Positions 13,380 through 54,130 are shown, counted from the stretch's first letter. The stretch: DNA of 64,000 nt from Nitrospirota bacterium (GCA_963721805.1 CAVRJY010000002.1:288001-352000), one strand, 5' to 3'. Notes: generated by a model from the sequence alone, not told the origin. A program made the numbers and translations.

Positions 13380-13466
13380 GCCGGAGTGGCGGAATTGGCA
13401 GACGCAAGGGACTTAAAATCCCTCGGGGGCAACCCCATACCGGTTCAATCCCGGTCTCCGGTACCA
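13380..13466 (+). tRNA. tRNA-Leu(TAA), left attachment site of island 1
   Basis: GCCGGAGTGGCGGAATTGG..AGGGA-CTTAAAA-TCCCT, long variable arm, GTTCAAT, CTCCGGTACCA; TTGACA upstream at 13317. Confidence 0.97.
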
Positions 13467-19722: not shown

Positions 19723-22700
19723 CTATGATTCCGTTGAAGGCTCGGCCGCATTGTCGTCGCCGTAAAAATGTTTCCTGAGTTCGATGCTTTGCTCAACACG
19801 TCTTTTTTCCGACGCAATTTGCCTATTTAACCTTTCAACATAGCCTTCTGCAAAAATACGAACTTTATGTTCATCATCCATAAGCCAGTCTTCAACTTCT
19901 TTCTTCTTACCCTCATAAGCATTTACGAAGCCAAATTCCCCAGATACAACTCCGGTGCTGGACAAAACGATGTCGACATTTGTCAGCAATTCATCCTGCT
20001 CTGGCAAAGCCAATATAATTTCTCTGCAAATATCTTTAAGAAAGTAACCGCCATCGTAACTTCTGAGTATTCCCAAAACAAAAGGAATGCTGTTCTGTTG
20101 CTTTGACCTGACAAGTTCGACTAGTATTTGGTTGAAAGCAGCTGGGAAGCTTGGGAATATGCTCTTAAGCAGTTTGCCCCCTCTAAACCTAAATAATGCT
20201 GGATCAGACTCAAACCACTCTTTTGTAATCGCTACCGCTTCATCGGGAATGGAAGAAAGCGGCTCATGGAGGTTGTGAAACATATAAGGCACAGCGTCAT
20301 AACGTTCAGCTAATGCCGAGGGATTCTCCTTCTTTAATCGTTCGCCAAAAAAACTGATGACTTTTGCAGGCCATTGTTGGGCTATTTGGAATAATATTTC
20401 TTCAGCTTCATGCTGAATTGAATTCACCAACAGAAGGTTTGCCAAAATAATATCTATGCCATTTTCGTCAATCTCGGACATAAATCTTTTCAGGCTTTTC
20501 TGAAACCACATCTGATGTATCCAACCTGTGACTTTAAGCTCGGTTAATTCCGCGATAGCGGGGATAAAAAGCTCTTGCACAAGATGTTTGTGAGCCTCAC
20601 TGTAAGTAGCTATGACAGCTCTTATAACTCCGATAAGCGCCGCTTCGTCCTTCAGCTCTTTAGCCTTAATGTATAGTTTCTTTAATAGGACTTCATCTAA
20701 ATGAGCACTGCTCGATAATACCCAAGAACACAAATAAAGATTTGTGCCTGCGTCTATTTGGCTATTCAAATATTTGATTGCATGTTCTCGGCCCGCCCCT
20801 TTTAATAAACCGCCAAGTATCCCTGCTATAAAACCACCTAGCTTATCTTCATGCTTGTCTATCAAATCAAGACAGAAGTCAGGATTGGTTTGGGCCAAAT
20901 TCTCTAAGAACTGAAAAAACATCGGGAATGTAGCTAAGTCATCCGATCTCGTCTTAGCACACTTAATAATTATTTCCTTCCAGAATACTGCATTGGTATC
21001 ATTTATTGACGCGGCAAATTCTCTGATCTTTTCATTGCGGTAGGTATCGGTTCTTGTGTAATCTCTATCACCAATTTCCCAATCCTCCATAAAAATAGAT
21101 TTGAAGCCTACAAGAGTTTTGTAGATTACATACTCGACATTGGCATTTAACTTATTCCTAAGCTGCATAATATCATCAATCAGAATTTCATTTTGTTTTC
21201 TTATTGACTCGCTGTATTCTTTGGCTTTGATGCCAACGGAACGCTGATATAAAAAGAATACATCTTGTTCGATGTCCTGAAGAATATCGTATTGTTCGCT
21301 GGAAGCGACTTCACTGTAAAACTGGACGATATTGGCGCAGTCTTTCAAGACAATCTCAAGCAATTCGTCTTCATAGCTTCCTTGCCACGGCAATTGCTCA
21401 GCCTTATCCAATACCATGATGATTTTTCTCTTCTCAGTGCCTGAAGTGGTCGTTTTGTATAAATCCTTTAATAACGTTAGCGCATCACTGCGAATAACGC
21501 TAAGCTCATCGCTGCCTAGCAAATTGAGCGTCTTAAATGTAACCTGTTTGTAAGTGCTATAAGTTCCATGTGCTGTGCAGTTCAGAACCTCTGCGCATAC
21601 CCTGATTATTAAGCCTTCAAGTGCGATAATCGCGCTTGGCTCCAAATCCTTAAGCTTGCCAATCAAAGTGCTCTGCACATATATCCCTGCTTGACGCAAT
21701 ACGTCCAGATCGTAGGCTGCCAAGTGGCCCACAACCTCGTTAATCTTTTCTTTCTCCTTCTCAGTATTTGAATGAAGGTATAGTTCCATCAAAGCTGACA
21801 AGGTGGCTTCAATATCAACGTAACGCACATCATTAAGAATGTCCAAGCATTTTTCAATCACCTCTTGAGAAGTCTTCCCCGGATAATTGCCGAAAGGTCC
21901 GCTAATTGGTATTGTCGGTTTTTCCCGCGCGATAGTTGATGCTGTTCTCACAACATCAAGGATTGCATCTAGCACCTTGGGAATTTCATCATAATGCGGA
22001 AGGACATAATCTCTGTATCGTTCAAGGATATTATATAGCTGATTATTATCTGTGCTATTTTGAATTTCAGTAATAATATCTCTGTCAAACAGCTGCTTGC
22101 CAGTTAAAAGCCTTTGATAGTCATGCTGTATTTTCTGAAACTCATATCCAGCGGGAAGTAGATATTGCTCCATAAGCTTCTTTAGGCGGGCATCAATCTT
22201 TTTGAACAGGCTATCTCCAAATCCACTTGTCTCCGTCTTTTTGTAAATCATATCGTGGGCTGTTTCTGACCAAGCGTGATTAAGAATCGTATGCACTTGG
22301 ATTTCACATTTTAGTCCCGCATACTCTGAGTATTCTGGCAATTTAGTGCGCTCTTCTTTCAGTTCAACCACAAAGTGATTAGCTATGTAATATTCATTAG
22401 CTGAAGCAGTCTTATCACTAGGATAATGGATTTTAGTGCTGTCCCAATGAACATTAAAATTGTCGCGGATGGTTCCTGATCCGATTAATTTGTCTACGTC
22501 GTCATTGTAATAAAAGATTATTCGGCATCCTGCCAGATCATTTATATGTTCTTCTATAACATCTGTATGACTCAAGCCTTTAAGTTCGAGCTTTTTGGCC
22601 AATGATTCAACTTCCTTAGCCCTAACTTGTATTTGCTGTAGATGGTATCCTTTGCCTTTGATTGCAGCATTAATAATATCTCTGACGGTCTTCGCCAGCC

Positions 22701-22746
22701 GTTCATACAGCACTCGCTTATGGGCGTTATATTCTTGCAGGTTCAT
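19723..22746 (-). CDS. RelA/SpoT synthetase-domain protein with about 800-aa C-terminal extension
   Basis: RAKEVESLAKKL, DLAGCRII, EIQVHTILNHAWSETAHDMIYK in first ~200 aa; no HD/TGS/ACT recognised; AT-rich. Confidence 0.88.
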   Translation of the reverse strand: MNLQEYNAHKRVLYERLAKTVRDIINAAIKGKGYHLQQIQVRAKEVESLAKKLELKGLSHTDVIEEHINDLAGCRIIFYYNDDVDKLIGSGTIRDNFNVHWDSTKIHYPSDKTASANEYYIANHFVVELKEERTKLPEYSEYAGLKCEIQVHTILNHAWSETAHDMIYKKTETSGFGDSLFKKIDARLKKLMEQYLLPAGYEFQKIQHDYQRLLTGKQLFDRDIITEIQNSTDNNQLYNILERYRDYVLPHYDEIPKVLDAILDVVRTASTIAREKPTIPISGPFGNYPGKTSQEVIEKCLDILNDVRYVDIEATLSALMELYLHSNTEKEKEKINEVVGHLAAYDLDVLRQAGIYVQSTLIGKLKDLEPSAIIALEGLIIRVCAEVLNCTAHGTYSTYKQVTFKTLNLLGSDELSVIRSDALTLLKDLYKTTTSGTEKRKIIMVLDKAEQLPWQGSYEDELLEIVLKDCANIVQFYSEVASSEQYDILQDIEQDVFFLYQRSVGIKAKEYSESIRKQNEILIDDIMQLRNKLNANVEYVIYKTLVGFKSIFMEDWEIGDRDYTRTDTYRNEKIREFAASINDTNAVFWKEIIIKCAKTRSDDLATFPMFFQFLENLAQTNPDFCLDLIDKHEDKLGGFIAGILGGLLKGAGREHAIKYLNSQIDAGTNLYLCSWVLSSSAHLDEVLLKKLYIKAKELKDEAALIGVIRAVIATYSEAHKHLVQELFIPAIAELTELKVTGWIHQMWFQKSLKRFMSEIDENGIDIILANLLLVNSIQHEAEEILFQIAQQWPAKVISFFGERLKKENPSALAERYDAVPYMFHNLHEPLSSIPDEAVAITKEWFESDPALFRFRGGKLLKSIFPSFPAAFNQILVELVRSKQQNSIPFVLGILRSYDGGYFLKDICREIILALPEQDELLTNVDIVLSSTGVVSGEFGFVNAYEGKKKEVEDWLMDDEHKVRIFAEGYVERLNRQIASEKRRVEQSIELRKHFYGDDNAAEPSTES

Positions 22747-22981: not shown

Positions 22982-23386
22982 ATGAATGAGGTTAAAACAT
23001 GTAATTTCGGAGAGCATCTTATGATTGATGGCTATGGCGGAGACCCCGAAAGATTAAACGACAAAGACTTGGTAATGCTTTCTTTGGTGGAGTTGCCGCA
23101 TCAGCTCGGCATGAAGAGGTTGAGCGATCCGCATGTCTATGAAGCCCCGGATAATGGGATGAAAGACCCCGGCGGCTGGAGCGGCGTTGTCATCATCGCC
23201 GAAAGCCACATCAGCATTCATACCTTCCCGCTGCGGAAGTTCGTGAGCATCGATGTCTATACCTGTATGAACGGCATAGATCGTGAATTTATCCGCAAGT
23301 ATTTTTCGGAGATATTCAAACTGCAAGATGTCGAGGAAAACTTTGTCAAAAGAGGGACGAGGTATCCGGTTTGCAATGTTTGTTAA
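22982..23386 (+). CDS. speD: SpeD-like pyruvoyl-dependent decarboxylase proenzyme (copy C)
   Basis: GEHLMIDGY, GGWSGVVIIAE-SHISIHTFP, DVYTC. Confidence 0.9.
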   Translation: MNEVKTCNFGEHLMIDGYGGDPERLNDKDLVMLSLVELPHQLGMKRLSDPHVYEAPDNGMKDPGGWSGVVIIAESHISIHTFPLRKFVSIDVYTCMNGIDREFIRKYFSEIFKLQDVEENFVKRGTRYPVCNVC

Positions 23387-23441: not shown

Positions 23442-23921
23442 TTAGCCTAATGCCAAAGAGGTGAATACGAGTGTGATGACGATCAGCTCAAGGCCGATCT
23501 CTGTCCATGCGGAGTAGTAAATGAACTTGGGAAGCTTCTTGCCGCCACGGGTCAAGAGATAGCCCGGCGCGATGAACGTCACCGCGCAGTTCATGGCGAA
23601 TCCAGTCCAGCCGATTTTGCCTATGAACTTGAGCTTGGAAACATCCACGGAGTCGATGGCCTTAAAGAACTTGCCGAACTCCAAGTGCTGAAGATGCTCC
23701 AGCACGTTGACTCCCATGGCCGACAGGATCATGATGAGCCCCGTGGTGTAGAAAATCTCCACGACCCCGACGATCATCAGATAGGTGGTGCCGGATACGC
23801 CCATCTCCGCTGTCATTTGCTTCCGTTTCTGAATGACTCGCGCCACAATCACGATGACGATGGCCATAGTGATCATAGTCGTGAAGTTAATCAGCAGGCG
23901 GATTGTGTCGCCCAGATTCAT
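23442..23921 (-). CDS. Small polytopic membrane protein
   Basis: AAGGAGG RBS, ATGA overlap with upstream gene, about 4 hydrophobic segments. Confidence 0.8.
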   Translation of the reverse strand: MNLGDTIRLLINFTTMITMAIVIVIVARVIQKRKQMTAEMGVSGTTYLMIVGVVEIFYTTGLIMILSAMGVNVLEHLQHLEFGKFFKAIDSVDVSKLKFIGKIGWTGFAMNCAVTFIAPGYLLTRGGKKLPKFIYYSAWTEIGLELIVITLVFTSLALG

Positions 23922-24709
23922 GACTTCCTCCTTCCTATGTCTTCCGGCAGTCGCAGGAAAAGCTTCTTCCCGATCCACCGGATTACCGGCTTCAGAAACG
24001 GCAGAGCCTTTGTGACTCTGTAAAGCGGATTATCCCACCTGATCAGAACGCCGTAGTTAAGGCTGTCCGGGTCATCCATGTATTCCGGGATGATCTCCTC
24101 GATCTCGAAGCCGTCCTTCAGGTAGAAGTAAAGTTCCGGGTCGAGCGGCTTTCCGTTTCTCCTCTTGCCATAGACATAGTCCTCGACCTTGATGTCCCGG
24201 TGCTTGTGGTAGCTGGGGATTCGCGAGCCAATATATCCAGCTTTCAATCCCTCTCCTATGATTCCCACCAAGACTGTGGCGAGGACGAGTTTGTCGGATA
24301 CCTTCTTAGGTGCCTCTCTTGTGACAGAGAGATCAACCCCAAAGCCCAGATTGCCAGTTGGCACATGAGTAGTGAGATAGCCATTGCCCGTTTTTTCGAG
24401 CCAAGACTTGTTCTTTCGAAGCTCTTCCTCTGTTGTGAATATGTTATTTAGTGTAGCAACCATCTTCCCATTCGCAAAAGCACAGTAAGTGGTTTGCGGA
24501 CAGATTTTGAAGTGGCTTTTTACCTTGTCCACGGTCCATAAGTATTCGTCTTTCGTTATGGCCCCCCAGACCTCTCTGTTTATGCGCACAAAATCATGCG
24601 CTAGCTGGTCCGCGTCATATCCTCTCTCCAAGAGGTCACTGACTCTGGTTACGACAAAGTCATTTCCAGCCCTTTTTAGGCTGAAGAAAGCCTTTATCTT
24701 GCTAGACAT
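23918..24709 (-). CDS. GNAT-like protein
   Basis: GYLTTHVPTG..FGVDLSV, GSRIPSYH, DPELYFYLKDGFEI..IIPEYMDDPDSLNYGVLIRWDNP resemble a GNAT subfamily; AAGGAGG RBS. Confidence 0.75.
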   Translation of the reverse strand: MSSKIKAFFSLKRAGNDFVVTRVSDLLERGYDADQLAHDFVRINREVWGAITKDEYLWTVDKVKSHFKICPQTTYCAFANGKMVATLNNIFTTEEELRKNKSWLEKTGNGYLTTHVPTGNLGFGVDLSVTREAPKKVSDKLVLATVLVGIIGEGLKAGYIGSRIPSYHKHRDIKVEDYVYGKRRNGKPLDPELYFYLKDGFEIEEIIPEYMDDPDSLNYGVLIRWDNPLYRVTKALPFLKPVIRWIGKKLFLRLPEDIGRRKS

Positions 24710-24898: not shown

Positions 24899-26665
24899 AT
24901 GTTTGGTGATGATCTTGTCTTATTCTTAATAGTGCTCACCCTCATTTTGTGCTTGGGTGTTGTTATCTATATTCAGAACCGGAAAAATGCGCTGCATAAA
25001 TCTTTCCTTTATCTTTCTATTGCAATTGCAATCTGGGTATTCGCCAATTACATGGAAGATGCAGTATCGCTCTATAGTTTGAAAGCCGTTCTCACTCAAA
25101 TTGATTTTATCTCTGCTCTATATATGGCATATTTCTTTTTTGATTTCTGCTATGTCTTCTCTAAGGACCAAGTGCAAATACCAAGGATAAGCATTTACAG
25201 GAAAATATTATTTTCCATCTCGATCCTGTTTTCCTTATTGATATTGTTTTCTCAGGCAGTCATCGGGCACGTTCTTTTGTCGAATGGGGTTAGCAATCCG
25301 GTATATGGGAATTTGCACTTTCCGTATATTGCCTATTTAGTTTTAGTTGATCTCATGGGTTTATGGTTTCTCTTGATTAAATATGCAAAAGAAGATTCCT
25401 CTACAAAAAAACAAACTGTCTCAGTATTCCTCGGTTCTTTCTTGGTCGTCATTGCAATGGTAATTGCGAATATAGTTTTGCCTATGATAATGGGATACAG
25501 CTCAAATTTTCTGTTTTTATCGCGCTTAGGGGTTTACAGTGTATTAATCCTCATCGGATTCATGAGCTATTCAATTGCCAAGAGCAATTTCCTGAATATC
25601 AAGATTATTACGGCGCAACTTTTTTCAATCGCAATGGTGCTTGTGTTTTTCTATGAGATACTCTCTTCGCAAAGTAAGCAGGAACTATTCTTGCGGATAA
25701 TCCTTTTCCTTCTGGTTTTGTATTTTGCTTCGATGATCGTTACTTACGTCAAGCTGGAAGTCAAAAGAAAAGAAGAAGTGGAAATGCTCAACAAGGAAAT
25801 CAACGAACGCAAAGAAGAACTGCAAAAGATGTCAGACTCTCTGGCCGTCGCCAACGATCAGATGAAAAAGCTGGATCGCGCCAAATCCGAATTCATTTCC
25901 CGCGCCTCTCATGACTTACGAACACCGCTCACCGGCATCAAAGGCTATGTCTCGATGCTGGCGGAAGGCTCCTATGGGGAAGTGACTGACAAGCAAAAAG
26001 ACATTCTGGGCAAAACCTATTCCATCGGCGAAGGCATGCTGAGTCTGGTTGAAGACCTCCTCAGCGCCTCCAAGCTTGAAGCTCAAGGAATGTCGTATGA
26101 ATTCGGCAAATGGAAAATCGAAGATGTTTGCCAGCAGATTGTCGATACACTCTATCCCAAGGCCAAAGGCATGGGGCTCTACCTCGATTACCAGAAACCG
26201 CAAGAGGTCTTGCCGGAACTGGTCATTGATGGCAGGAGGATCAAAGAGGCCATTTCCAATCTGGTGGATAATGCGGTCAAGTATTCCAAACAGGGAGGCG
26301 TGACGGTGCGTCTGGAGCGCGCAGAGGCCTCCAATTACCAGCCGCCAGTCACCAGCAATCCCAATGAGAAGTTCACGATGATCACTGGGGCGGTGGCGAG
26401 AATCACAATATCCGATACCGGCATCGGCATTCCGAAAGACGAAATCCCATATCTATTCGCCAAATTCTCCCGTGGCAAGGATACGACGCGCCTCAATGCC
26501 GGTGGCACCGGCTTGGGCCTGTATATCTGCAAAGGCTTCATCGAGGGCAACGGCGGCAAGATTTGGGTGGAGTCCGAGGGTGACGGCAAAGGCTCGCGCT
26601 TTATCGTGGAGCTACCGATTGAAACACCCAAGGATATTTTGGAGCAATCAGTGGATAAGAATTAA
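24899..26665 (+). CDS. Sensor histidine kinase with multi-TM N-terminal domain
   Basis: Long hydrophobic N-terminus; SHDLRTPL H-box, NLVDNAVKY, DTGIGI, GTGLGL. Confidence 0.95.
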   Translation: MFGDDLVLFLIVLTLILCLGVVIYIQNRKNALHKSFLYLSIAIAIWVFANYMEDAVSLYSLKAVLTQIDFISALYMAYFFFDFCYVFSKDQVQIPRISIYRKILFSISILFSLLILFSQAVIGHVLLSNGVSNPVYGNLHFPYIAYLVLVDLMGLWFLLIKYAKEDSSTKKQTVSVFLGSFLVVIAMVIANIVLPMIMGYSSNFLFLSRLGVYSVLILIGFMSYSIAKSNFLNIKIITAQLFSIAMVLVFFYEILSSQSKQELFLRIILFLLVLYFASMIVTYVKLEVKRKEEVEMLNKEINERKEELQKMSDSLAVANDQMKKLDRAKSEFISRASHDLRTPLTGIKGYVSMLAEGSYGEVTDKQKDILGKTYSIGEGMLSLVEDLLSASKLEAQGMSYEFGKWKIEDVCQQIVDTLYPKAKGMGLYLDYQKPQEVLPELVIDGRRIKEAISNLVDNAVKYSKQGGVTVRLERAEASNYQPPVTSNPNEKFTMITGAVARITISDTGIGIPKDEIPYLFAKFSRGKDTTRLNAGGTGLGLYICKGFIEGNGGKIWVESEGDGKGSRFIVELPIETPKDILEQSVDKN

Positions 26666-26673
26666 TTATATAC

Positions 26674-27063
26674 ATGAAAGAAATCCTGCTATTACTCAAC
26701 CGTGAACCTGAGAAGTTCTTCATCTATGAGGAACGGTTCAAGCGCGAACGGTGGGCGATGTTTGCCATGTCCAGCTTCAAGAACGTGCTGGATTATGCCG
26801 CACTGGACGATCCCGATCTTATCCTGTTCGATCTGAATTACGCAGGCGAGGCGCAAAAGGGTCTGGACTTCCTCAAAGAGTTCAAAGCCAGCCAGCGCTA
26901 CCGGCACATCCCGATCATTGTTTTGGCTGACGCGGACGATGAGGACTTGAGACGAAAAGTTAAAAAACTCGGCATTGAGGATTACGCGGTGAAATCGCAG
27001 ACGGATACGGAAGAGCTGGTGCGGAGAATCAAGGGCGTGCTACCAACGGAGCCTGAAGCTTAA
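26674..27063 (+). CDS. Stand-alone receiver domain, atypical
   Basis: PDLILFDL, IPIIVL, DYAVK; acidic pocket replaced by LNRE. Confidence 0.8.
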   Translation: MKEILLLLNREPEKFFIYEERFKRERWAMFAMSSFKNVLDYAALDDPDLILFDLNYAGEAQKGLDFLKEFKASQRYRHIPIIVLADADDEDLRRKVKKLGIEDYAVKSQTDTEELVRRIKGVLPTEPEA

Positions 27064-27076
27064 TAATCACAAAACT

Positions 27077-27475
27077 ATGGAAAACAAGAAAACCAAGAAA
27101 ATATTGATGATCGAAGACGGTGAAATCTTCATCGAGATGTTCGGCGACCGCTTGAAGCAGGCCGGATATGAGGTTGAGTTTGCCAATAACGGAGCGTGGG
27201 GCATCAAGGAAGCGCTGAGCAATGACTTTGATCTGTTTATCATCGATATGCTGATGCCAGCGATGACCGGGGAAGAGATGATCACCAAGCTGAAACTGGA
27301 TGACAAGACCAAGAACATCCCGATAATCGTTTTGTCTGCCTCGGTGGACCATGAAACCCAGAAACGGGTGGAGACGATGGGCATCAGCGCGTTTTATCTG
27401 AAAACCCATATCACGCCGAGCGAGTTGGTGAAAAAGGCGGCGGAAATCCTCGGGTATGCCAAGATTCCTGAATAA
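27077..27475 (+). CDS. Stand-alone response regulator receiver (CheY-like)
   Basis: KKILMIEDG, DLFIIDMLMP, IPIIVLSA, FYLK. Confidence 0.92.
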   Translation: MENKKTKKILMIEDGEIFIEMFGDRLKQAGYEVEFANNGAWGIKEALSNDFDLFIIDMLMPAMTGEEMITKLKLDDKTKNIPIIVLSASVDHETQKRVETMGISAFYLKTHITPSELVKKAAEILGYAKIPE

Positions 27476-27513: not shown

Positions 27514-28053
27514 CTATAGGCCGCTCAGAAGGCCCGTCAGGCTGTCGTAGCCTAGAATATAGAGCTTGGCCCATACGAACATCTGAAAACCGCTTGCAAA
27601 GACGAATAGGCACACCCGGAGCAAATTCGATGGGATTCTTTCCCGAAAGAAGATCAGCAGATGAGCCGAACCATCCCAGAGCAGCAGTCGGATGACAATA
27701 CAGGTCTCGATCAGGATGCCTACAACCTTTGTCCGCTTGGTGATGGCATTACTGAGCTTTCTTAGTGACTGCATGAGGGTAATATCCAGCTTAAACCTAT
27801 CCCCAAATACAATAACGGCACCCGAAACCATAAGATTCAGCCCCCAGAGGATCAACCATATTGGGGTGTCGGTAAGCCCGTAATGTTTGAGAAGCGTAAC
27901 TATGGCGGCAGTTACCGCAACCAGAAACCATTCAGTGGCGTATAAGGACGGCACGAAGATAGCGGTAGCGATACCTTTTCTGCTGAGTTCTCGTTCATCT
28001 CCCGTGCTATCAACTGCCACCCACTCGGAAAGTTTTCTTTGCCATTTTCTCAT
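27514..28053 (-). CDS. Small polytopic membrane protein
   Basis: ATGA overlap with GNAT; 4-5 hydrophobic segments. Confidence 0.8.
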   Translation of the reverse strand: MRKWQRKLSEWVAVDSTGDERELSRKGIATAIFVPSLYATEWFLVAVTAAIVTLLKHYGLTDTPIWLILWGLNLMVSGAVIVFGDRFKLDITLMQSLRKLSNAITKRTKVVGILIETCIVIRLLLWDGSAHLLIFFRERIPSNLLRVCLFVFASGFQMFVWAKLYILGYDSLTGLLSGL

Positions 28054-28607
28054 TCGGGAGTGACCTTCTGGTTTATCTTCGGTGAATTGGTATATGTGCC
28101 TTCGATATAATCAGTTGGTTCGGTTCCGTTATAGTATTTCCAGTTCTCAATCCTTCTTACCAGCGTCACCATGTCTTTATAGTATCTCTGTATAACCTGA
28201 CTCAGCCCATTGTCCACCCTTGAGTGCATGGATACCTTATTGCATCCTCTTGCCATGGATTCTTCGATGAGTTTTGAAAGCATCCGTAAGAAGCCCCGCC
28301 CTTTGCGGAACTCAGGCAGAATGGACATGGTTTCAACGTAATATCGTTGTCCATCCTCTCGCATCAAAGGGTCATCTTCTTTCAGTTCTTCAACGGCTTT
28401 GTTCTGAGGCAAGGCTAATAGGTATCCAACGATTTTGGCATCTTCTTTTAACAGAATAAAAATATTGCTATAATCCTTCATCATTTCTCTATTGTATTGT
28501 TCGTAATCTTCGTCTTGCCATTCATCCGGGAAAGACAAACTATCAACCTGAAGAATCTCCCGCAAAACCTGCTCATCAAACTCTGTGATGACTTCAGCAA
28601 TTTGCAT
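28050..28607 (-). CDS. GNAT N-acyltransferase
   Basis: IVGYLLA, YVETMSILPEFRKGRG acyl-CoA binding motif A. Confidence 0.88.
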   Translation of the reverse strand: MQIAEVITEFDEQVLREILQVDSLSFPDEWQDEDYEQYNREMMKDYSNIFILLKEDAKIVGYLLALPQNKAVEELKEDDPLMREDGQRYYVETMSILPEFRKGRGFLRMLSKLIEESMARGCNKVSMHSRVDNGLSQVIQRYYKDMVTLVRRIENWKYYNGTEPTDYIEGTYTNSPKINQKVTPE

Positions 28608-28609
28608 CG

Positions 28610-29926
28610 TTATTTCAAATAGCCCCATTTTCTCAGCAATGCCTTATCCTTTTCAATAAACTGAAGACCAATGTCATTTCTATAAAACATCTTGGGTATC
28701 AGGATTTTGTCTGTCAATTCATATGCTTTATCTCTTGCCTTTTGAACTGTTTTCCCAACGCCTGTAACACACATAACATACCCGCCATTAGCGGATATGA
28801 CATATTCCTGTTCATCGCTACTATTAACATCCGATGAAACTTCCGAGAAATGTATATGCGTCCATTCTTCGTCAGTTAATTTCTGACGAAAGAATATCCT
28901 CAATCCTTGCGGATTATACTTACCGTTGATAGGAGTGTAAGGAAATGGAGGAACGGCAAGCAGGACTACAATACCGAAGCCTCTTCTCCATTTCAGATCA
29001 AAGGGTTTACCATCAGCTATTGCCTTTAATAATTCACCCGACTTGGACAGATTGAGGACACTTCGCAGATGCACGGCTGGATAGCCAAATCTTGGAGTAG
29101 CCTCTAAGGGGGTGGCCCCTGTTTCGTTGACAATACAATTGATGTCAATATCTCCCCTAAAGTCTATTTTCTGGAGATAGGGTTTCAGTTTTGCAAGAGT
29201 TTCATTAAACAGTTTGTTGTCCTCATTGTCGTCATACCACATGAGCGTTCCCATCTCTGATGTCTTTGGACCAAGATTTCCGGGGAACAATTTCTTGTGC
29301 TCGATATTCATTTCAATGGGGCCGACCCAATCTTTCCCGTTAAAATACCGCGCAACAGCTATCTCAACTCCATTGACCATTTGTTGTAAATCAATGGAGC
29401 GGCACTCCGTGTTATTAAACTTTGCATAATTACTGAGCAGGCTGATTACATCACTGCCGTCGGGCATTCTTCCAACATAAGAAAAACATTTATCAGCATG
29501 ACCATTTTGTTTAACAACCCATTGCCCACGATTTTTCTCAATAAAAGTTATAGCATCCTTAGGTGATACGAAATGCCGTGATTGCACAGTCTTCAACCCG
29601 CATTTCTTGAATATTTGTTGTGCATGGAACCTGTCAAACTCTAAACTATCGCCACCCTCCGAGCCGCCCACTACGGAATATCCCTGCTCCCTGAGCTCAT
29701 CCTGTATTTTCCCAAACCCCGACTGGTCAAAAATTATGAGACCATCCTTGCCGACCCATGGGAGTTCTTTTTCCCAATTTTTCACTTTGGTCAGTCCGAA
29801 GCCATCACCGACCTTTGAAAAAGCTCGTTCTTTGATGAATACCTTTACTTCATGCCCTTCCTGTTTCAGCCTTTGAGCAAGGTCTAATATATCACCATCT
29901 CTGCTTATTATTATTATTATTCTCAT
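28610..29926 (-). CDS. PurD/GARS-like ATP-grasp ligase (divergent)
   Basis: LEFDRFHAQ, WVVKQNG, EHKKLFPGNLGPKTSEMG, LEATPRFGYP, C-terminal YRNDIG; lacks canonical PurD GSGGREHA. Confidence 0.85.
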   Translation of the reverse strand: MRIIIIISRDGDILDLAQRLKQEGHEVKVFIKERAFSKVGDGFGLTKVKNWEKELPWVGKDGLIIFDQSGFGKIQDELREQGYSVVGGSEGGDSLEFDRFHAQQIFKKCGLKTVQSRHFVSPKDAITFIEKNRGQWVVKQNGHADKCFSYVGRMPDGSDVISLLSNYAKFNNTECRSIDLQQMVNGVEIAVARYFNGKDWVGPIEMNIEHKKLFPGNLGPKTSEMGTLMWYDDNEDNKLFNETLAKLKPYLQKIDFRGDIDINCIVNETGATPLEATPRFGYPAVHLRSVLNLSKSGELLKAIADGKPFDLKWRRGFGIVVLLAVPPFPYTPINGKYNPQGLRIFFRQKLTDEEWTHIHFSEVSSDVNSSDEQEYVISANGGYVMCVTGVGKTVQKARDKAYELTDKILIPKMFYRNDIGLQFIEKDKALLRKWGYLK

Positions 29927-29938
29927 GGTTGTTACAGG

Positions 29939-30482
29939 CTAATCCTGTTTCCTCCATCTTTGGATTCGATTAATTTTCTCTTCTAGAAACCACTGAAAGT
30001 AACCTTTATATCTTTTCTGTAGGTCAGGCAGTTTCCAATCATTATCAGTCACATGTGTTCTGCATTGTTTTGCACCACACAGACATTTAATTTTGTATGG
30101 TCTTGTCCCTTTCGTTCTTGAAAGCACCATTCCATAATCAAAAGTCACTTCCGCCCCCCCCCCGTATATTCTTCATCGCCACGAGGAATATCTGCCCTTT
30201 AAAGCCTGCATTCGGGTTACAGCTATGATTTATAAATGTGCCGTCAACTTTCGCCTCAGATATACTTCTTATGCCTATGATAAATTCTTCACTTATTTGC
30301 ATTCCGTAATCTCTTATGGATTCAGGTAATTTTTCCTCTTCTGCGCTCGTCATAATGTATCCACCAAATATGCATAAAAGGGTTCCCTTGCGAATAGCTT
30401 CTTTCGCATAAAGCCCTTTGCCCGTTAACTTAGTAATACGCAGCTGAAGTTTTGGGTTTATCCATGAAAAGGGGTGTTCCAT
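29939..30482 (-). pseudogene. SET-domain methyltransferase with post-SET, frameshifted at a G10 tract
   Basis: GKGLYA and INHSCNPN in 30138-30482; EVTFDY and CLCGAKQCR in 29939-30148; deleting one G at 30154-30163 fuses them into 180 aa. Confidence 0.88.
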
Positions 30483-30486
30483 GATT

Positions 30487-30888
30487 TTATTGCGTAGGTG
30501 AGATAACCCTAAACCCCCGTTTCATCTTTCTTGCCTTGACCCTATCATGCTTGAGGTTGTCCGTAATGTGCTTTACGATGCTGTCCGTCTCGGCTTTCCC
30601 TCCGCATGTGAAGACATCACAGGCGACATATTCATATTCATACCAAGTGTGGAATGATATGTGAGAAGCGGACAGAAGGAAATACCCCGTGAGTCCGTAT
30701 GGGGAAAACTTGTAGAAGTGCTTATTCAGCAGCTTTGCCTCTGTCCCAGCCATGGCTTTCGTCAACAGCTTTTCCCAAAAGGGCTGGGAGTTTAGCTGCC
30801 GCTTGTTGCACCCGAAAAACTCCAACAGGTAATGCACCCCATCGGGCGCACTATTCTTCAGATGCGTCTTGCTTCCCTTATTGGTCAA
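30487..30888 (-). CDS. speD: SpeD-like decarboxylase proenzyme (copy B, variant A-SH cleavage site)
   Basis: GVHYLLEFFGC, FSPYGLTGYFLLSA-SHISFHTW, CDVFTCG. Confidence 0.85.
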   Translation of the reverse strand: MTNKGSKTHLKNSAPDGVHYLLEFFGCNKRQLNSQPFWEKLLTKAMAGTEAKLLNKHFYKFSPYGLTGYFLLSASHISFHTWYEYEYVACDVFTCGGKAETDSIVKHITDNLKHDRVKARKMKRGFRVISPTQ

Positions 30889-30972
30889 GAAGACATCCCC
30901 CTATAAGGCCGTAACATCAGGAATAATTATACATTATTTTCAATTGGCATGCGGGAATTTCTGCTGTAGCCG

Positions 30973-31380
30973 CTACGCAATGTTGCATATGGGATATTTC
31001 GTCCCTCTCTTGATGAAATTGGTTTCGATCTCGTGAAGGGCGAACTTCTCTCTAAAATAGCTTTCAATTATCGCGGGCTCCATTCCGTTTTTGCAGGAAT
31101 AGACATCGGCGCTCAGAAACCTGCGGGCCGGAAAAGTATGGATACTGATATGGCTTTCGGCCACGACCACAAATCCGCTCCAGCCGCCGGGGTCTTTGCC
31201 AAAAGTATCGGGAGCAAAATATACCTGAGGCTCTGCCAGCTTGTTCATGCCGAGGGAATCCGGCAACTCATGAAACACGCTTAAGACCAGCTCTCGGTTA
31301 TTGAGCTTTTCAGGATCGCCGCCGTAACCGTCGATGGTTAAATGTTCGCCAAAATTACAGAATGAACTTTTCGTGTTCAC
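30973..31380 (-). CDS. speD: SpeD-like decarboxylase proenzyme (copy A)
   Basis: AAGGAG RBS and GTG; GEHLTIDGY, GGWSGFVVVAE-SHISIHTFP, DVYSC. Confidence 0.9.
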   Translation of the reverse strand: MNTKSSFCNFGEHLTIDGYGGDPEKLNNRELVLSVFHELPDSLGMNKLAEPQVYFAPDTFGKDPGGWSGFVVVAESHISIHTFPARRFLSADVYSCKNGMEPAIIESYFREKFALHEIETNFIKRGTKYPICNIA

Positions 31381-31428: not shown

Positions 31429-31442
31429 GAATTTGATGCCCT

Positions 31443-31470
31443 TAAGCTCCTCTTTGTAAAGAGGAGCTTA
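31443..31470. repeat. Left serine-recombinase crossover site
   Basis: TAAGCTCCTCTTT-GT-AAAGAGGAGCTTA: perfect 13-bp inverted arms around a 2-bp asymmetric core. Confidence 0.88.
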
Positions 31471-31485: not shown

Positions 31486-32253
31486 ATGAATCATGGGAAA
31501 CAAAGCAAAAAAAAGCAGAAGGTAGTCGCCTACTGCCGGGTATCCACTTTGGAGCAGAAAAAGCGGGGACATGGGATCGATATTCAGATTCGAGACGTTT
31601 CGATATTTGCCGAACGGCACGGGATGATGGTTGAAAAGTTCTACATGGATGAAGCAGTAAGCGGCACTAAGGAAAATAGAAAAGCCCTGAATCAACTGAT
31701 GAGAGATTGCAGGGCCGGAAGGATTGGCATCGTGATCCTCCCCTCGTTAGATCGGCTTTCGAGGGAAGTCAGGATCGCTGAAAACCTGTTTCATGAATTT
31801 GAAAAGCTGCGAATCAAAATTCTCATCGCCGATATGCCGCAGTATAACGGGGAACACAAGGATATTTTGATCAGGCAGATTCTTGAAGCTATTTCAGAGG
31901 AGAACCGCCGGGAGATAATTGAAAGATTGCTGAAAGGACGGCAGGAACGAGTCAGGAAAGGCTTATTCCCCGGCGGCACTCTGCCCTATGGCTACGTTAG
32001 AGAAGATAAGGCCGTCAGAGTTTATCCGCAAGAAGCTGAAATCGTGGCTAGGATTTATGAGCTGGATGCTGACGGACAGGCAGGTAAAGCTATCGCGGAT
32101 GCCCTTAATGAAAGCGGACGGGTGCGGAGAAATGGTAAACCTTGGACTCAAAGGCAAGTTTGCCGAGTCCTCAAGCATGAAAGAATATATCGGGAAGGGA
32201 TGCTGCATTACGGAGATATTATGGTGAACAACAGCGCCTTTGCTGTTCTTTGA
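31486..32253 (+). CDS. Serine recombinase (catalytic plus recombinase domain), probable DNA invertase
   Basis: AYCRVST nucleophile, SLDRLSR, GG.LPYGY, PQEAEIVARIYEL, IADALN; ends with no zinc ribbon or coiled coil. Confidence 0.92.
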   Translation: MNHGKQSKKKQKVVAYCRVSTLEQKKRGHGIDIQIRDVSIFAERHGMMVEKFYMDEAVSGTKENRKALNQLMRDCRAGRIGIVILPSLDRLSREVRIAENLFHEFEKLRIKILIADMPQYNGEHKDILIRQILEAISEENRREIIERLLKGRQERVRKGLFPGGTLPYGYVREDKAVRVYPQEAEIVARIYELDADGQAGKAIADALNESGRVRRNGKPWTQRQVCRVLKHERIYREGMLHYGDIMVNNSAFAVL

Positions 32254-32357: not shown

Positions 32358-32385
32358 TAAGCTCCTCTTTACAAAGCGGAGCTTA
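32358..32385. repeat. Right serine-recombinase crossover site, inverted relative to left
   Basis: TAAGCTCCTCTTT-AC-AAAGCGGAGCTTA; reverse complement matches the left site at 27/28. Confidence 0.88.
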
Positions 32386-32569
32386 AAATAAAATGTGAGG
32401 ATCACAGGTCCTCTTTTTCGTATTATACCCTCTTCCACAATTCGCTTTTTAAGGTCAGTCAGCTTGACAGTCCTTTGATTTTGTGTTTTGATTCTTCGTT
32501 AAATATATTTGCCGAAATAGGCAAATTCTCCCGCCTTTTTTAAATCATTGGCTGCGATAATCTAAAACC

Positions 32570-34164: not shown

Positions 34165-37011
34165 ATGGTCAAGAACATTCTCGCCTGTATAAACAGTCGA
34201 ATTGTCATAAGCCTTTTTAACCTATTTCTGCTATTCTCATTGCCCCTAATTTCTGGGTGTAGTGTTGCCCTTTCGCCACTTTCCAGCAAGGAATATCTAA
34301 TGTATTATGATGGGGATTATGAGAAAACAATACAATACTTTGACAATGGGACAAGCTTACTTTCAGCACACGAAAAGAAAAGAATCCTTGATGAAAACAT
34401 CAAAAGAATAAAAACAAATCAGGAAACAACTTTCGAATTCATCTACTACAGATTCGATCAGGAATATCTGATAAAGTCACTCTTAGCTACGGGTGAATTT
34501 GACCGAGCACTAAAACTCTGTGACGAGGGACTTAAAGAGTGCGAGATGTTCGCGGACCTCTTTAAGCGATACAAATATAGCCCCGAAAGTCCTGTTGAGA
34601 CGAATCATCAGCTTAGATTTGACCTGTTGCGGCTTAAGGGGTATGTCATATGGTTTAAAACTGGAGACGAAGACACCGCTTTCAAATATTTCAATAAGTC
34701 TATGGCGAGTGATCCATCCGACCAGCAATACATCACATTCCTTGATTCATTGGGTAAACAGAAATTAGCATTTCTTATGGACAACGCCTATTTTAATGAC
34801 AAGATTCTTGGCAAGCATCGAGAGGCTCTGGCCTATTTTCAGCAAGTTGTGGGTCTTTGCGATAAGTTAACGCTACTCGACATTGACATGCAATATGGTT
34901 TTAAGGAGATGGCCTACCTACGAATGATGACCATCAAGATGCATCTAGGCGAGCTTGAAGAAGCCAAGAAAGAACTCGACAAATGGAATGACCTGATGAA
35001 CACGTTTGTTATTCGCAGTGCCAGTCTGGTTGTGAAGAATTCTAAGTTATATCGAGGCCCCCTTGCTGAATCCTATTCTTATGCTGGGGCCTTGTATGCT
35101 CTGGAGAGAGATTTCGAAACATCAAAAATATATTTTGATAAGGCGCTTGATGTAATAAAAACGATTGAACCGGATAAGCATAATATGTTTGATCGCATAG
35201 CTTTGGGCACTTACTATACGCTTTACGGGACTTATTACTGCGGTCTGCAATCCGGAAAGCTTGAAGAGGCAATTGAAAATACGGACAAGGGCTTGAATTA
35301 CGTGCCACCCTTTTTCATGGCGGATGCATCATCTGATTTGGACATCGAAACCGCATATAGATATTCAGCCGAACTCTATTTTATAAAGAAGGACTATGCT
35401 ACAGCAAAAGGGCGTGCGCTAAAAGCCTTGGAATATGCGCTAAAGAAACAAAACAAGGTCGCTGCCGCTGCTGCGCATACAATTTTAGGACAAATTTATT
35501 ACGCGAAAAATGAAAAGTCAGCTGCACGGCAGGAATACGAGAAAGCGCTTAGAATAGCTGAACATCATGGAAACGAAAGCACAGATGACTGGAAGCTCTA
35601 TTATGGCCTCGGTCAGGTTTACGAAGACTCCGGTGACAAGACCGGCGCGCTGAAATATTACGGAGACGCAGTCCGCGAGGTTGAGAAACTTTGGAGTGGC
35701 AGATTCAAGGATACAGTCAAGCAAGTTAGCTTTATCGATGACCGGCTCATAGTTTTCGAGCCGATGATCAGAATCCTCCATGCGCAGAAAAATGATAAGG
35801 AAGCCGTTCGTTATATGGAGATGTCAAAAGCCAGAACGTTTTATGAGGCCTCGCCATTTTATCCCGCCGAGGCGGGCAAGAATATAGAAGCATGGTCTCC
35901 TGTTAAGCCCATGAGTATCAATGATCTAAGGGCCTCGGTCTCTGATACAACAGCGATATTGGAATATTATGTGGGAGCCCGTTCTGTCATGGCCGCCATT
36001 ATCACCAAGAAAGAAGTTCATATTGAAGAGCTGAAAATTGATAATTTACAGAAGAAAATAATTGCCTTTAATCTGTATATGGCAAACCCAGATTATGAGT
36101 ATCCGACTGAGAGAGGCATAGAGCTATATGCTGCTTTAGTGGCTCCATTTACAAAATATTTAGCTGGTTATGACTCACTCTGTATCATCCCACATGGGGT
36201 GCTGCATTATCTTCCGTTTCAAGCGCTCATTACCGGAAAAGATACGTCGTCATTTTTAATCGATAAATATAAAGTATTTTACGCTCCGAGTTTGACAATC
36301 CTGAACACGGTCTATAAATCTAACCGGACTAATAAGGTCAAATTGTTAGCGGTTGCGAATTCTCTTGAGGTGGATGTTAAAGACCTAAATCTTGGAAAGG
36401 ATACACTCCCTAGGCTTGCGAATGTTATCAAGGAGGCAAGGGAGGTTGGGCAGCTGTTTGACGATACCAATAAGACCATTATCGTTGACGATAAGGCGAC
36501 AAAGACTACAGTGAGCGATACCGCGAGCGCATACGACATATTATTGTTTTCAACTCATGGCCTCATGGTTAGCAATGAGCCATTAAAATCATGCATTTTT
36601 CTCTCAAAGGATAATGAGAATAACGGGCGGTTATCTGTCGATGATATTGAAAAGTTAAAGCTGAATTCAAACTTGGTAATATTAAGTGCGTGCGAAACAG
36701 GACTTGTTTCGAGCTACGCGGGCAATGGTGATGATAATAATCCTTATGACACTAGATTTCCACTTGGAGATGATCTGGCGGGACTTCAACGAGCGTTTAT
36801 GAAAGCAGGCTCAGCCTCAATTCTTTCAACACTTTGGTCAGTAAATGATACGGCAACAAAATCGTTTATTGTAGATTTTGTGAAGCATTATAAAGGTGGA
36901 GATGATAAAATCTCTGCTTTACAAACAGCTGCGCTTAATATAAAATCAACTGAAAAATGGAAGCATCCATACTACTGGGCGGCATTTATCCTGAGCGGCG
37001 ACTGGAGGTAG
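34165..37011 (+). CDS. TPR plus CHAT (caspase-like protease) domain protein, putative lipoprotein
   Basis: LISGC lipobox; TPR-like repeats; IIPHGVLHYLPF, STHG, LSACETG, LWSVND, HPYYWAAF. Confidence 0.92.
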   Translation: MVKNILACINSRIVISLFNLFLLFSLPLISGCSVALSPLSSKEYLMYYDGDYEKTIQYFDNGTSLLSAHEKKRILDENIKRIKTNQETTFEFIYYRFDQEYLIKSLLATGEFDRALKLCDEGLKECEMFADLFKRYKYSPESPVETNHQLRFDLLRLKGYVIWFKTGDEDTAFKYFNKSMASDPSDQQYITFLDSLGKQKLAFLMDNAYFNDKILGKHREALAYFQQVVGLCDKLTLLDIDMQYGFKEMAYLRMMTIKMHLGELEEAKKELDKWNDLMNTFVIRSASLVVKNSKLYRGPLAESYSYAGALYALERDFETSKIYFDKALDVIKTIEPDKHNMFDRIALGTYYTLYGTYYCGLQSGKLEEAIENTDKGLNYVPPFFMADASSDLDIETAYRYSAELYFIKKDYATAKGRALKALEYALKKQNKVAAAAAHTILGQIYYAKNEKSAARQEYEKALRIAEHHGNESTDDWKLYYGLGQVYEDSGDKTGALKYYGDAVREVEKLWSGRFKDTVKQVSFIDDRLIVFEPMIRILHAQKNDKEAVRYMEMSKARTFYEASPFYPAEAGKNIEAWSPVKPMSINDLRASVSDTTAILEYYVGARSVMAAIITKKEVHIEELKIDNLQKKIIAFNLYMANPDYEYPTERGIELYAALVAPFTKYLAGYDSLCIIPHGVLHYLPFQALITGKDTSSFLIDKYKVFYAPSLTILNTVYKSNRTNKVKLLAVANSLEVDVKDLNLGKDTLPRLANVIKEAREVGQLFDDTNKTIIVDDKATKTTVSDTASAYDILLFSTHGLMVSNEPLKSCIFLSKDNENNGRLSVDDIEKLKLNSNLVILSACETGLVSSYAGNGDDNNPYDTRFPLGDDLAGLQRAFMKAGSASILSTLWSVNDTATKSFIVDFVKHYKGGDDKISALQTAALNIKSTEKWKHPYYWAAFILSGDWR

Positions 37012-38962: not shown

Positions 38963-39388
38963 TTATGAAATCTCAGACAGAAAATCCTTTGCGGTCATTA
39001 CTCGCACTCTGCCTTGCACACTCTCTGCAAAAAAATGGGCATCACCGGTCAGAAAGTAATCCGGCTTGGTCTGGAGCACTGCGGCCAAGATATGGGCATC
39101 CTTCTTGTGACTTATCAGCCCTTGGGCCTCCATTAATTTATGCCTATATTTCGAGCGCGGGATAATTGCCATGTCACTCAGGGCTCGTTCAACTTCAGAT
39201 AGTGCAATTTCGAGAGTTCGGTCTTTAAGGTATTTCAGTTTCCGGCGGACGACCGCTTTCAGCTCATCGACTGCGTCTTCGCAGGTAATTAGATCAATCT
39301 CGACAAGTCCGATGATCTTCGCTTCATTGCCGTCAAAGAAGATACCGGAGAGGAGGACATTGGTATCTAAGAAAACCTTGAGCCTCAT
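38963..39388 (-). CDS. PIN-domain toxin (VapC-like)
   Basis: VFLDTNVLLS, DAHILAA, LTGDAHF. Confidence 0.9.
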   Translation of the reverse strand: MRLKVFLDTNVLLSGIFFDGNEAKIIGLVEIDLITCEDAVDELKAVVRRKLKYLKDRTLEIALSEVERALSDMAIIPRSKYRHKLMEAQGLISHKKDAHILAAVLQTKPDYFLTGDAHFFAESVQGRVRVMTAKDFLSEIS

Positions 39389-44032: not shown

Positions 44033-44087
44033 GACTTAAAATCCCTCGGGGGCAACCCTGTACCGGTTCGATCCCGGTCTCCGGTAC
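44033..44087 (+). repeat. Right att of island 1: displaced 3' half of tRNA-Leu
   Basis: GACTTAAAATCCCTCGGGGGCAACCCTGTACCGGTTCGATCCCGGTCTCCGGTAC. Confidence 0.95.
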
Positions 44088-44162: not shown

Positions 44163-44234
44163 AGGCGCGTAGCTCAGTGGGAGAGCGCTACCTTGACACG
44201 GTAGAGGTCGGGGGTTCGATACCCCCCGCGCCTA
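44163..44234 (+). tRNA. tRNA-Val(GAC), left att of island 2; CCA not encoded
   Basis: AGGCGCG..CTACC-TTGACAC-GGTAG..GTTCGAT..CGCGCCTA. Confidence 0.95.
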
Positions 44235-53897: not shown

Positions 53898-53942
53898 TTG
53901 ACACGGTAGAGGTCAGGGGTTCGATACCCCTCGCGCCTACCA
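53898..53942 (+). repeat. Right att of island 2: displaced 3' half of tRNA-Val including CCA
   Basis: TTGACACGGTAGAGGTCAGGGGTTCGATACCCCTCGCGCCTACCA, followed by a terminator hairpin. Confidence 0.95.
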
Positions 53943-54130
53943 TTAAAAACAAGGGGCTGGCCATTTATGGCTGGCCCCTTATTCTTGCGGATTCAGCAGG
54001 CGGGTAAGCTGTGTTGGGAACAATGGCATAATAACCTTGACTTACAAAGTCCTACCAATTACTCTAACAGGCATAGAGCTAGTTTTTCGGGCTTGCGCGA
54101 AATCCCTTAAAAGGTCGATACCGGAATTAT

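Follow-up and report, generated by a model that had tools for sequence, protein, structure and literature searches.

The 64,000-nucleotide stretch of a Nitrospirota bacterium assembly analysed here (GCA_963721805.1 CAVRJY010000002.1:288001-352000, hereafter the window) carries on its minus strand, at 27514-31380, six genes for two SpeD-like decarboxylases, a SET methyltransferase, an ATP-grasp ligase (LIG), a GNAT acyltransferase and a small membrane protein (MEM). Together they appear to form a horizontally acquired cassette that makes, caps and exports an amine-containing amide, with the methylation step switched by a run of G residues. From the protein families and their neighbourhoods we propose, and narrowly favour, a general mechanism in which an amine is made, linked as an amide, capped and handed to the membrane by a system that is modular, mobile and widespread. 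A first-pass annotation of the window had picked out six closely spaced minus-strand genes, and their open reading frames (ORFs), coordinates and Pfam families were all confirmed, the membrane protein being without a family. The genes lie head to tail, with gaps in operon order of 84, 4 and 12 nucleotides (nt) followed by overlaps of 19 and 4 nt, and we therefore treat them as a single operon with the following parts:

30973-31380, minus strand: SpeD1, pyruvoyl decarboxylase homologue of group A (PF02675, 87 bits)
30487-30888, minus strand: SpeD2, decarboxylase of group B resembling S-adenosylmethionine decarboxylase (AdoMetDC) (PF02675, 107 bits)
29939-30482, minus strand: SET methyltransferase in two ORFs, 30138-30482 (114 amino acids, aa) and 29939-30148 (69 aa) (PF00856, 40.6 bits)
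30154-30163, minus strand: G10 homopolymer (C10 on the plus strand) at the SET frame break
28610-29926, minus strand: LIG, putative PurD-fold ATP-grasp amidoligase (Pfam GARS_A and GARS_C)
28050-28628, minus strand: GNAT acyltransferase (PF00583, Acetyltransf_1, 39 bits)
27514-28053, minus strand: MEM, small polytopic membrane protein (96.5 bits on a hidden Markov model, HMM, built from 21 loci)

LIG belongs to the ATP-grasp superfamily and, as modelled, has a PurD-like fold, but it is not PurD. Foldseek searches with the AlphaFold (AF2) model of LIG (pLDDT 88.5) gave PurDs as the best matches, over the full length and with TM scores of 0.72-0.77 at about 20% identity; the top 14 matches listed are PurD, and biotin carboxylases rank after the PurDs among the matches listed. 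On the purD equivalog model TIGR00877, LIG reaches 110.3 bits against a cut-off of 288 and covers model positions 80-423 only; a true purD, at 563 bits, is encoded on a different contig of the host. The PurD GGREHA motif, noted as missing at first pass, is indeed absent, since LIG has SRDGDILDL at its N-terminus in place of host PurD's GGGGREHAI and thus lacks the G-G-R-E-H-A loop. Relative to host PurD, the LIG family also has EHKK for DHKR, EATPRFGYPA for EFNxRxGDPE and NGGYVM for GGRVL. The contacts to glycine described for PurD are Asp212, Arg287 and Glu292 (PMC8880213), and in LIG these would correspond, as mapped by motif, to Glu209, a retained arginine (R279) and an alanine. K139, E188, H210-K211, E275 and R279 are invariant within the LIG family, and LIG has Thr at the position of PurD's Mg-binding Asn.

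The separation from PurD is also seen in sequence searches, phylogeny and genome context. Scored with phmmer against the window LIG, 13 true PurDs give 46-75 bits, seven proteins from phage contigs 175-296 bits and the family itself at least 418 bits. In a FastTree phylogeny of 133 sequences, the LIG family groups with its phage relatives in a clade that excludes the 13 PurDs (support 0.906, branch length 3.4), in keeping with the earlier suspicion that the ligase was not a true PurD. Five LIG-bearing genomes of the candidate phyla radiation (CPR), of 0.6-1.0 Mb and possibly incomplete, yielded neither a purD over the cut-off (0/5) nor a purM match (0/5). Of the 8000 candidates scored in a protein search with LIG, 3452 matched at E up to 0.001, and the best 120 are 53-91% identical to it; those of the 120 with a named source come from Patescibacteria, Nitrospirota and Deltaproteobacteria and are labelled PurD or "GARS C domain-containing protein". 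The distribution is sporadic, with LIG in two of 151 sampled genomes of the host phylum, this one included, and in nine of 151 from the phylum of one CPR carrier, that carrier included. The idea that LIG's N-terminal domain is a receiver phosphorylated by the kinase was considered and rejected, as the whole protein superposes on PurD and Pfam finds no Response_reg domain.

More distant LIG homologues (32-38% identity) were seen on viral contigs (L155-L163) within phage structural and lysis modules, where their neighbours include an SU10-type adaptor, an Mtd_N/pectate-lyase tail fibre, lysozyme and Rz genes; one of them (L161) is a doubled form of the ligase homologue of 751 aa. Another contig from a viral collection (L154) is a mobile element whose cargo comprises a ligase of 54% identity, a pyridoxal phosphate (PLP)-dependent decarboxylase and an EamA transporter, on a backbone with a Prim-Pol/DUF3987 primase, a helicase and a ParB-methylase.

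The company that LIG keeps was determined from 80 loci in species genomes (the best 80 of 218 confirmed relatives), 66 metagenome loci and 14 viral contigs. For the 80 genome loci, ORFs lying up to 5 kb from the ligase were clustered to define neighbours, and since many loci are short contigs, a well-flanked subset of 50 with at least 4 kb on both sides is given separately; the loci are not independent of one another because CPR genomes share synteny. The commonest neighbour is a seven-transmembrane (7TM) histidine kinase (52/80), followed by an EamA transporter (37/80), the membrane-anchored, Cys-rich protein u190 with its acidic tail (25/80), MEM (21/80), SpeD (17/80), SET (11/80) and GNAT homologues (10/80). 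In the well-flanked subset the kinase is present at 37 of the 50 loci, EamA at 27 and MEM at 11, with no overlap between EamA and MEM; any of four membrane families is found at 42, a decarboxylase of SpeD or PLP type at 14, an N-capping enzyme at 21, and the kinase or a membrane partner at 49. The conserved core is thus the ligase, a membrane protein and the 7TM kinase, and the decarboxylases and caps are optional. The first-pass annotation raised the possibility that its six genes do not co-occur elsewhere. Their families do recur around LIG, and the claim of co-occurrence stands at that level, but the six genes are not a fixed unit, being found all together at none of 146 related loci in cellular genomes and metagenomes. 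With this recurrent core and no related locus that has all six, the window holds a rich variant of a modular system. The wider neighbours in CPR genomes are mostly housekeeping genes with some glycan genes and give no decisive pattern.

The genes listed at first pass are real, but that annotation drew the operon too narrowly, leaving out the 7TM kinase of the conserved core, the receivers and a third SpeD gene, which lie beside the operon as follows, with two adjacent ORFs and the element that carries them all:

24899-26665, plus strand: 7TM sensor histidine kinase (Pfam HisKA_7TM, HisKA and HATPase_c)
26674-27063 and 27077-27475, plus strand: two single-domain receiver genes (PF00072)
22982-23386, plus strand: SpeD3, second group A decarboxylase (PF02675, 85.9 bits), inverted relative to SpeD1
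23442-23978, minus strand: orf178, membrane protein, placed by adjacency only and of uncertain membership
23918-24709, minus strand: orf263, GNAT-like, placed by adjacency only and of uncertain membership
13380-44087, no strand: integrated element carrying the cassette (tRNA-Leu, 55-nt direct repeat, low GC, integrases)

Scored with an HMM of the ligase-linked kinases, the window kinase gives 440 bits in a full-length match, and 36 of these kinases are also hit by its first 300 residues, the 7TM part, alone. The receiver genes end 38 nt from the end of the operon; their counterpart at several related loci is a REC-REC fusion of 285-290 aa that follows the kinase. The kinase is absent from several loci outside the CPR (L005, L008 and L010). 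MEM has no family in Pfam, NCBIfam or PADLOC. For orf178 and orf263 there is no homologue among the related loci and no Pfam family, and we take the likeness of orf263 to GNAT clusters in ESM Atlas features (score 0.96) as a lead only. Searches of the PADLOC 2.0 defence models (E up to 0.01) gave no family for the seven operon ORFs, and in PHROGs, among the operon proteins, the matches are to SpeD and GNAT families only.

The decarboxylases of the cassette and its relatives fall into groups that differ in the motif around the processing serine. Group A comprises SpeD1 and SpeD3, which are 62% identical to each other, and relatives of 57-68% identity, mostly from CPR, that adjoin the ligase elsewhere; its motif is ESHISIHTFPxRGFxSxDVYTC, and SpeD1 reads AESHISIHTFPARRF...DVYSC. 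Group B comprises SpeD2, its paralogue on host contig C5 (67% identity) and relatives in the closest ligase loci, with the motif S[AST]SHISxHTW[P/Y/A]E; SpeD2 reads SASHISFHTWYEYEY...FTC. Group C consists of CPR proteins of 129-135 aa with ESGIQIHTLTPKNFISIDIYSC. The residues S63, H68 and C83 are given for processing of the class 1b SpeD of T. maritima (PMC10407285), and all SpeD groups keep the processing and catalytic residues, a Ser with His at +5 and Cys at +20; SpeD1-3 thus have the features of class 1b AdoMetDC. On TIGR03330 (cut-off 75.65) SpeD2 scores 106 bits, SpeD1 73.7 and SpeD3 75.9. Compared with the T. maritima AdoMetDC, SpeD2 has Ala for Glu before the Ser and Tyr for the conserved Pro; SpeD1 keeps this Pro and has FPARRF instead of WPEYGY. 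True AdoMetDCs are said without exception to have the Pro after H-T-W, and where no spermidine synthase is present, SpeD homologues are reported often to be ornithine or arginine decarboxylases (Li et al. 2023, PMC10407285).

Gene context ties these enzymes to the ligase. In two of the five LIG-bearing CPR genomes the sole AdoMet_dc homologue found adjoins LIG on its upstream side, and a spermidine synthase over the cut-off is missing from all five; in the host, as had been noted for the window, no spermidine synthase accompanies the cassette, the single Spermine_synth gene lying on another contig. A PLP decarboxylase of the Orn/DAP/Arg type stands in for SpeD at three loci, L029, L070 and L154, the last being the mobile element described above. 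A SpeD directly upstream of LIG, and its replacement by a PLP enzyme, therefore link an amine-forming step to the ligase. In a Parcubacteria locus (L033:5068-6949) the region directly upstream of the ligase encodes a group B SpeD fused to an aminopropyltransferase and, after it, another aminopropyltransferase, and because of this fusion we consider that enzymes of the SpeD2 type are probably true AdoMet decarboxylases that build a longer polyamine; the Tyr-for-Pro exchange of SpeD2 itself weighs against that assignment. Enzymes of this type may also feed polyamine synthesis of the host.

The cap families near the ligase are GNAT, SET, a formyltransferase of the Fmt/ArnA/PurN type, a PrmA-like methyltransferase and two other methyltransferase families, and they vary between loci. 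The single 634-aa ligase-GNAT fusion at L030:1489-3393 directly links the ligation and capping steps. At L014:5569-6864 a member of this GNAT subfamily (PF00583) carries an N-terminal PlsC-type acyltransferase domain (PF01553) and lies beside a major facilitator superfamily (MFS) protein and LIG. The GNAT of the window stands alone and matches acetyl-type models.

The SET gene is, as judged from its homopolymer and from the in-frame and out-of-frame alleles of relatives, probably a phase-variable (contingency) gene, as the first-pass annotation had supposed in placing the operon under phase variation. The split falls within the G10 run, the two ORFs meet where intact homologues have the G-E-E/TFDY column, and, by comparison with these, the motifs N-H-S-C-x-P-N and F-D-Y and the Cys-rich post-SET region are found across the two ORFs. 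The run is the sole G/C homopolymer of 8 or longer in the window and the only coding G/C run of 10 or longer in the host genome, where 16 runs of at least 8 compare with the 273 that base composition would predict. The remaining long G/C runs in the host (C1:16507 G11, C1:1546358 C11 and C4:138112 C9) lie in apparent copies of a repeated non-coding element.

Runs recur in related loci, with G8 out of frame at the same SET column as in the window (L008 and its near-copy L105), G11 in frame in one SET copy and G9 out of frame in a second (L097), G11 at a contig end (L099), G8 out of frame (L100, L101 and L103), G8 out of frame in a second SET copy (L064) and G10 out of frame in u235, the methyltransferase gene after the ligase (L010). 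Of 24 G/C runs of at least 8 in 1.56 Mb of non-redundant related loci, seven lie in SET or u235 genes, which make up 1.2% of that sequence (binomial P = 8.5e-9, with the gene class set after the data were seen). Four out-of-frame cases have one G too many and two have one too few, and these mixed offsets speak against a single programmed frameshift. Of 87 SET homologues from databases, P0121 is intact (192 aa), is 85% identical to the first half of the window gene and reads RGGEEVTFDYG; P0125 is intact and its near-twin P0124, which agrees with it at 104 of 108 residues ahead of the run, continues out of frame; and five further proteins stop at the Gly run. The SET-domain family is not known for phase variation, and we know of no precedent, no search for one having been made. 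That the break is an assembly error or a dead gene with no switch has some appeal in that homopolymers are error-prone and that out-of-frame alleles are the majority of those seen, but the runs occur at four or more different SET or methyltransferase positions in independent assemblies, close relatives have both intact and shifted alleles, the frame offsets differ and the host otherwise avoids such runs, and we think this explanation improbable.

The cassette resides on an integrated element, and the mobile island described at first pass is supported by a fall in GC from about 0.62 to 0.40-0.50 across about 13-56 kb, by a tRNA-Leu (taa) at 13380-13466 whose 3' part is repeated directly at 44033-44087 (55 nt, 95%), and by integrases, which occur on the island with a T4 coupling-protein-like gene, a primase and a serine recombinase. 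A second element in tandem is marked by a tRNA-Val (gac) at 44163-44234 and a direct repeat of its 3' part at 53898-53987 (90 nt, 82%). Pfam searches of 51 ORFs (10.9-60.2 kb) found no pur genes besides the ligase, no search being aimed at pur genes as such, and a classical ESHLSIHTWPEFGY SpeD protein of the host is encoded just beyond the window edge.

The host also has a second low-GC islet (L179, contig C5:70209-72198) with an XRE gene, the group B SpeD that is 67% identical to SpeD2, a GNAT that is 37% identical to that of the operon, and a membrane protein (u179), and without a ligase, so that a trio of decarboxylase, GNAT and membrane protein can stand alone. The homology of MEM and u179 is not significant by hhalign (probability 0.5%, E = 0.12). 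The C5 islet adjoins five genes that resemble rodA, pbp2 and mreDCB by N-terminal sequence alone.

Several other features of the island were seen in passing. SpeD3 and SpeD1 form a 191-nt inverted repeat (23090-23280 and 31079-31269, 73%) that brackets the kinase, the receivers and the operon. Just left of SpeD3, at 19723-22746 on the minus strand, a 1007-aa protein has an N-terminal RelA_SpoT domain and a long remainder to which no domain was assigned. On the other side, the divergent serine recombinase gene (31486-32253, 255 aa) adjoins SpeD1, and a 29-nt palindrome stands on either side of it (31442-31470 and 32358-32386). The same island encodes a 948-aa protein with TPR and CHAT protease domains (34165-37011, plus strand) and a PIN-domain protein (38963-39388). 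At four loci outside the CPR (L005, L008, L010 and L029) the ligase cassette lies amid XRE genes (by Pfam) and genes that by eye are PIN/VapC-like and RelE/ParE-like.

We now put forward a mechanism for the cassette. Primary amines would be formed by the pyruvoyl decarboxylases, with SpeD1 and SpeD3 acting in the manner of amino-acid decarboxylases and SpeD2 in that of AdoMet decarboxylases. LIG would activate a carboxylate with ATP and join it to the amine as an amide, which is the chemistry of its fold, and the remaining free amino group would be capped with a methyl group by SET or an acyl group by GNAT; the SET channel, which is built to take the side chain of lysine, would also accommodate an amide-linked diamine by its aminoalkyl tail. 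MEM, for which EamA is observed to be swapped elsewhere, would then pass the product to or across the membrane, and the 7TM kinase and two receivers, whose association with LIG is observed, would be the conserved sensor of the module. Slippage of the G run, the alleles of which are observed, would turn methylation on and off stochastically. The destination may be the cell envelope, with the cap tuning charge or an epitope. On/off switching and the mobile, toxin-antitoxin-rich islands point in this direction, and the Arn-like pairing of a formyltransferase with EamA is also taken to do so; the pairing of exporter and kinase points to a released molecule. We prefer the envelope, and a free exported metabolite is nearly as likely.

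A number of points weigh against this mechanism. The substrates and product of LIG are inferred from families and context only, the substrate classes of the SpeD proteins are assigned from motif positions alone, and with Thr in place of the Mg-binding Asn, LIG catalysis itself is read from conservation. Decarboxylases and caps at 14 and 21 of the 50 well-flanked loci imply that the amine used by LIG may come from elsewhere and that the optional genes may serve other ends, and the ligase-free C5 islet means that SpeD2, GNAT and the membrane protein could be a separate unit. The six genes do not recur as a set, MEM belongs to no known family, and the kinase link could be regulatory only. Finally, SET is out of frame here, and the length of its G run is known from the assembly alone.

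The module can be compared with several described systems. By analogy it is one that works in the manner of the ATP-dependent amine-amide systems, PurD, the glutathionylspermidine-synthetase type and the Campylobacter jejuni amidoligase, while being a member of none. With PurD, LIG would share the four-domain ATP-grasp fold, and it keeps the ATP-grasp lysines, the H-K motif and the Arg for the substrate carboxylate, so that the same course of acyl-phosphate and then amide formation is presumed; unlike PurD, it has a kinase, transporters, decarboxylases and caps rather than pur genes as partners, and it is found without the purine pathway. Ligases of the glutathionylspermidine-synthetase type likewise form an amide bond to a polyamine at the expense of ATP and belong to a different ligase family. 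The capsule-modification genes of C. jejuni carry phase-variable G runs. In that organism the C-terminal TupA-like ATP-grasp amidoligase of Cj1438 is described as joining a small amine to the carboxylate of a surface polymer (PMC11800379); unlike the capsule system, the ligase loci have no conserved glycosyltransferase partner, and the analogy is one of mechanism only.

The ligase-free SpeD-GNAT-u179 cassette of the host resembles blt-bltD and SpeG-type systems, but those have no decarboxylase, ligase, SET or kinase, and their membrane proteins are not homologous to that of the cassette. In these systems, of which blt-bltD is from B. subtilis, a GNAT and a membrane exporter act on polyamines. 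Clusters that link AdoMetDC with membrane proteins were reportedly described by Li and co-workers in 2019. Such clusters have PspA, DUF350 and MFS-SpdSyn, none of which was seen around the ligase. No PurD-like module is known to us from the 2009 survey of amidoligases by Iyer and colleagues. Literature searches returned no description of the ligase family or of the module, in agreement with the first-pass view that this is not a described pathway, and the survey by Iyer et al. 2009 may bear on novelty. AdoMetDC homologues outside classical polyamine synthesis and clustered with membrane proteins have been described (PMC11237479). The SpeD proteins of the window and of other ligase loci are like the neofunctionalised SpeDC and SpeDA in being small, of class 1b, without a spermidine synthase and with Ser, His and Cys kept (PMC10407285), and neofunctionalised SpeD is stated to be common in CPR and Nitrospirota (PMC10407285). 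No ATP-grasp partner is reported there, and neither 'ATP-grasp' nor 'PurD' occurs in the text (Li et al. 2023, PMC10407285).

Among the alternatives, the one that survives best builds on the same parts. The product would be a capped aminoacyl- or acyl-polyamine that is exported by EamA or MEM and sensed by the 7TM kinase, with the caps as 'dialects', and the triad would then be a system of chemical communication or surface identity in ultra-small CPR and other uncultured lineages, its product made, exported and sensed. The swappable methyl, acetyl and formyl caps would set the variant, and in mobile versions the G-run methyltransferase switch would flip it stochastically. The conserved triad speaks for such a produce-export-sense circuit (kinase 37/50, membrane partner 42/50, either 49/50), as do the kinase accompanying LIG across phyla and onto the window island, the output through REC-only proteins that have no DNA-binding domain, and tailoring enzymes that differ between loci. 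The 7TM sensor may instead read the state of the membrane, however, and the kinase is missing from L005, L008 and L010. It also counts against a signalling circuit that tailoring steps switched on and off are found more typically in surface structures. We consider the circuit rather unlikely, and its extension to communication or surface identity among these lineages is offered as tentatively.

It is improbable, in our estimate, that the cassette instead builds an amino-lipid head group, with GNAT as the N-acyltransferase, LIG joining an amine to a lipid carboxylate or extending the head group, and SET methylating the amine. The PlsC-GNAT fusion at L014 has the domain order of the ornithine-lipid synthase OlsF (PMC12971839), and the same source describes head-group N-methylation of ornithine lipids by OlsG and reports that taurine is joined, with ATP, to the ornithine-lipid carboxyl, a reaction for which it names no gene (PMC12971839). 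However, the fusion occurs at one of 80 loci only, no homology to OlsB, OlsF or OlsG was seen, no search being aimed at it, the window GNAT fits acetyl-type models, and the decarboxylases would have no clear part.

The best-known members of all the cap families use protein or aminoacyl substrates, and this would suit a modified ribosomal peptide or protein, in which LIG joins an amine or an amino acid to a peptide carboxylate and SET, the PrmA-like enzyme, GNAT and the Fmt-like enzyme cap lysine-like or N-terminal amines. SPASM radical-SAM maturases are near LIG at seven of the 50 well-flanked loci and a C39 peptidase family at two of 80, but genes this rare could be near LIG by chance, CPR genomes being compact; in the eight loci read, LIG has next to it no conserved small ORF resembling a precursor, the window operon has no room for one, and the link to pyruvoyl decarboxylases suits small amines better. 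This makes a peptide or protein product quite improbable. Ordinary metabolism, with a diverged PurD and SpeD copies for host spermidine, would accord with PurD being the nearest relative by fold and sequence, with SpeD2 exceeding the AdoMetDC cut-off and with the one spermidine-synthase homologue of the host, but we find it hardly credible given that LIG is below the purD cut-off, has lost motifs, forms a separate clade and occurs in genomes without purM, that the host already has purD and a classical SpeD, and that LIG is rare in the host phylum (2/151) and lies on an island.

The identification of LIG as a ligase distinct from PurD bears on how its carriers are understood. The PurD label found among the best matches of LIG can distort metabolic reconstructions of CPR; the five carriers have no purD over the cut-off and no purM. 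Neofunctionalised SpeD tied to an ATP-dependent ligase, variable caps and membrane proteins would constitute an unexplored branch of amine metabolism or envelope chemistry, and, given how small, mobile and modular the unit is, heterologous expression should allow its product to be identified. The G-run switches in SET genes, with both alleles present in nature, would extend contingency loci to uncultured environmental lineages.

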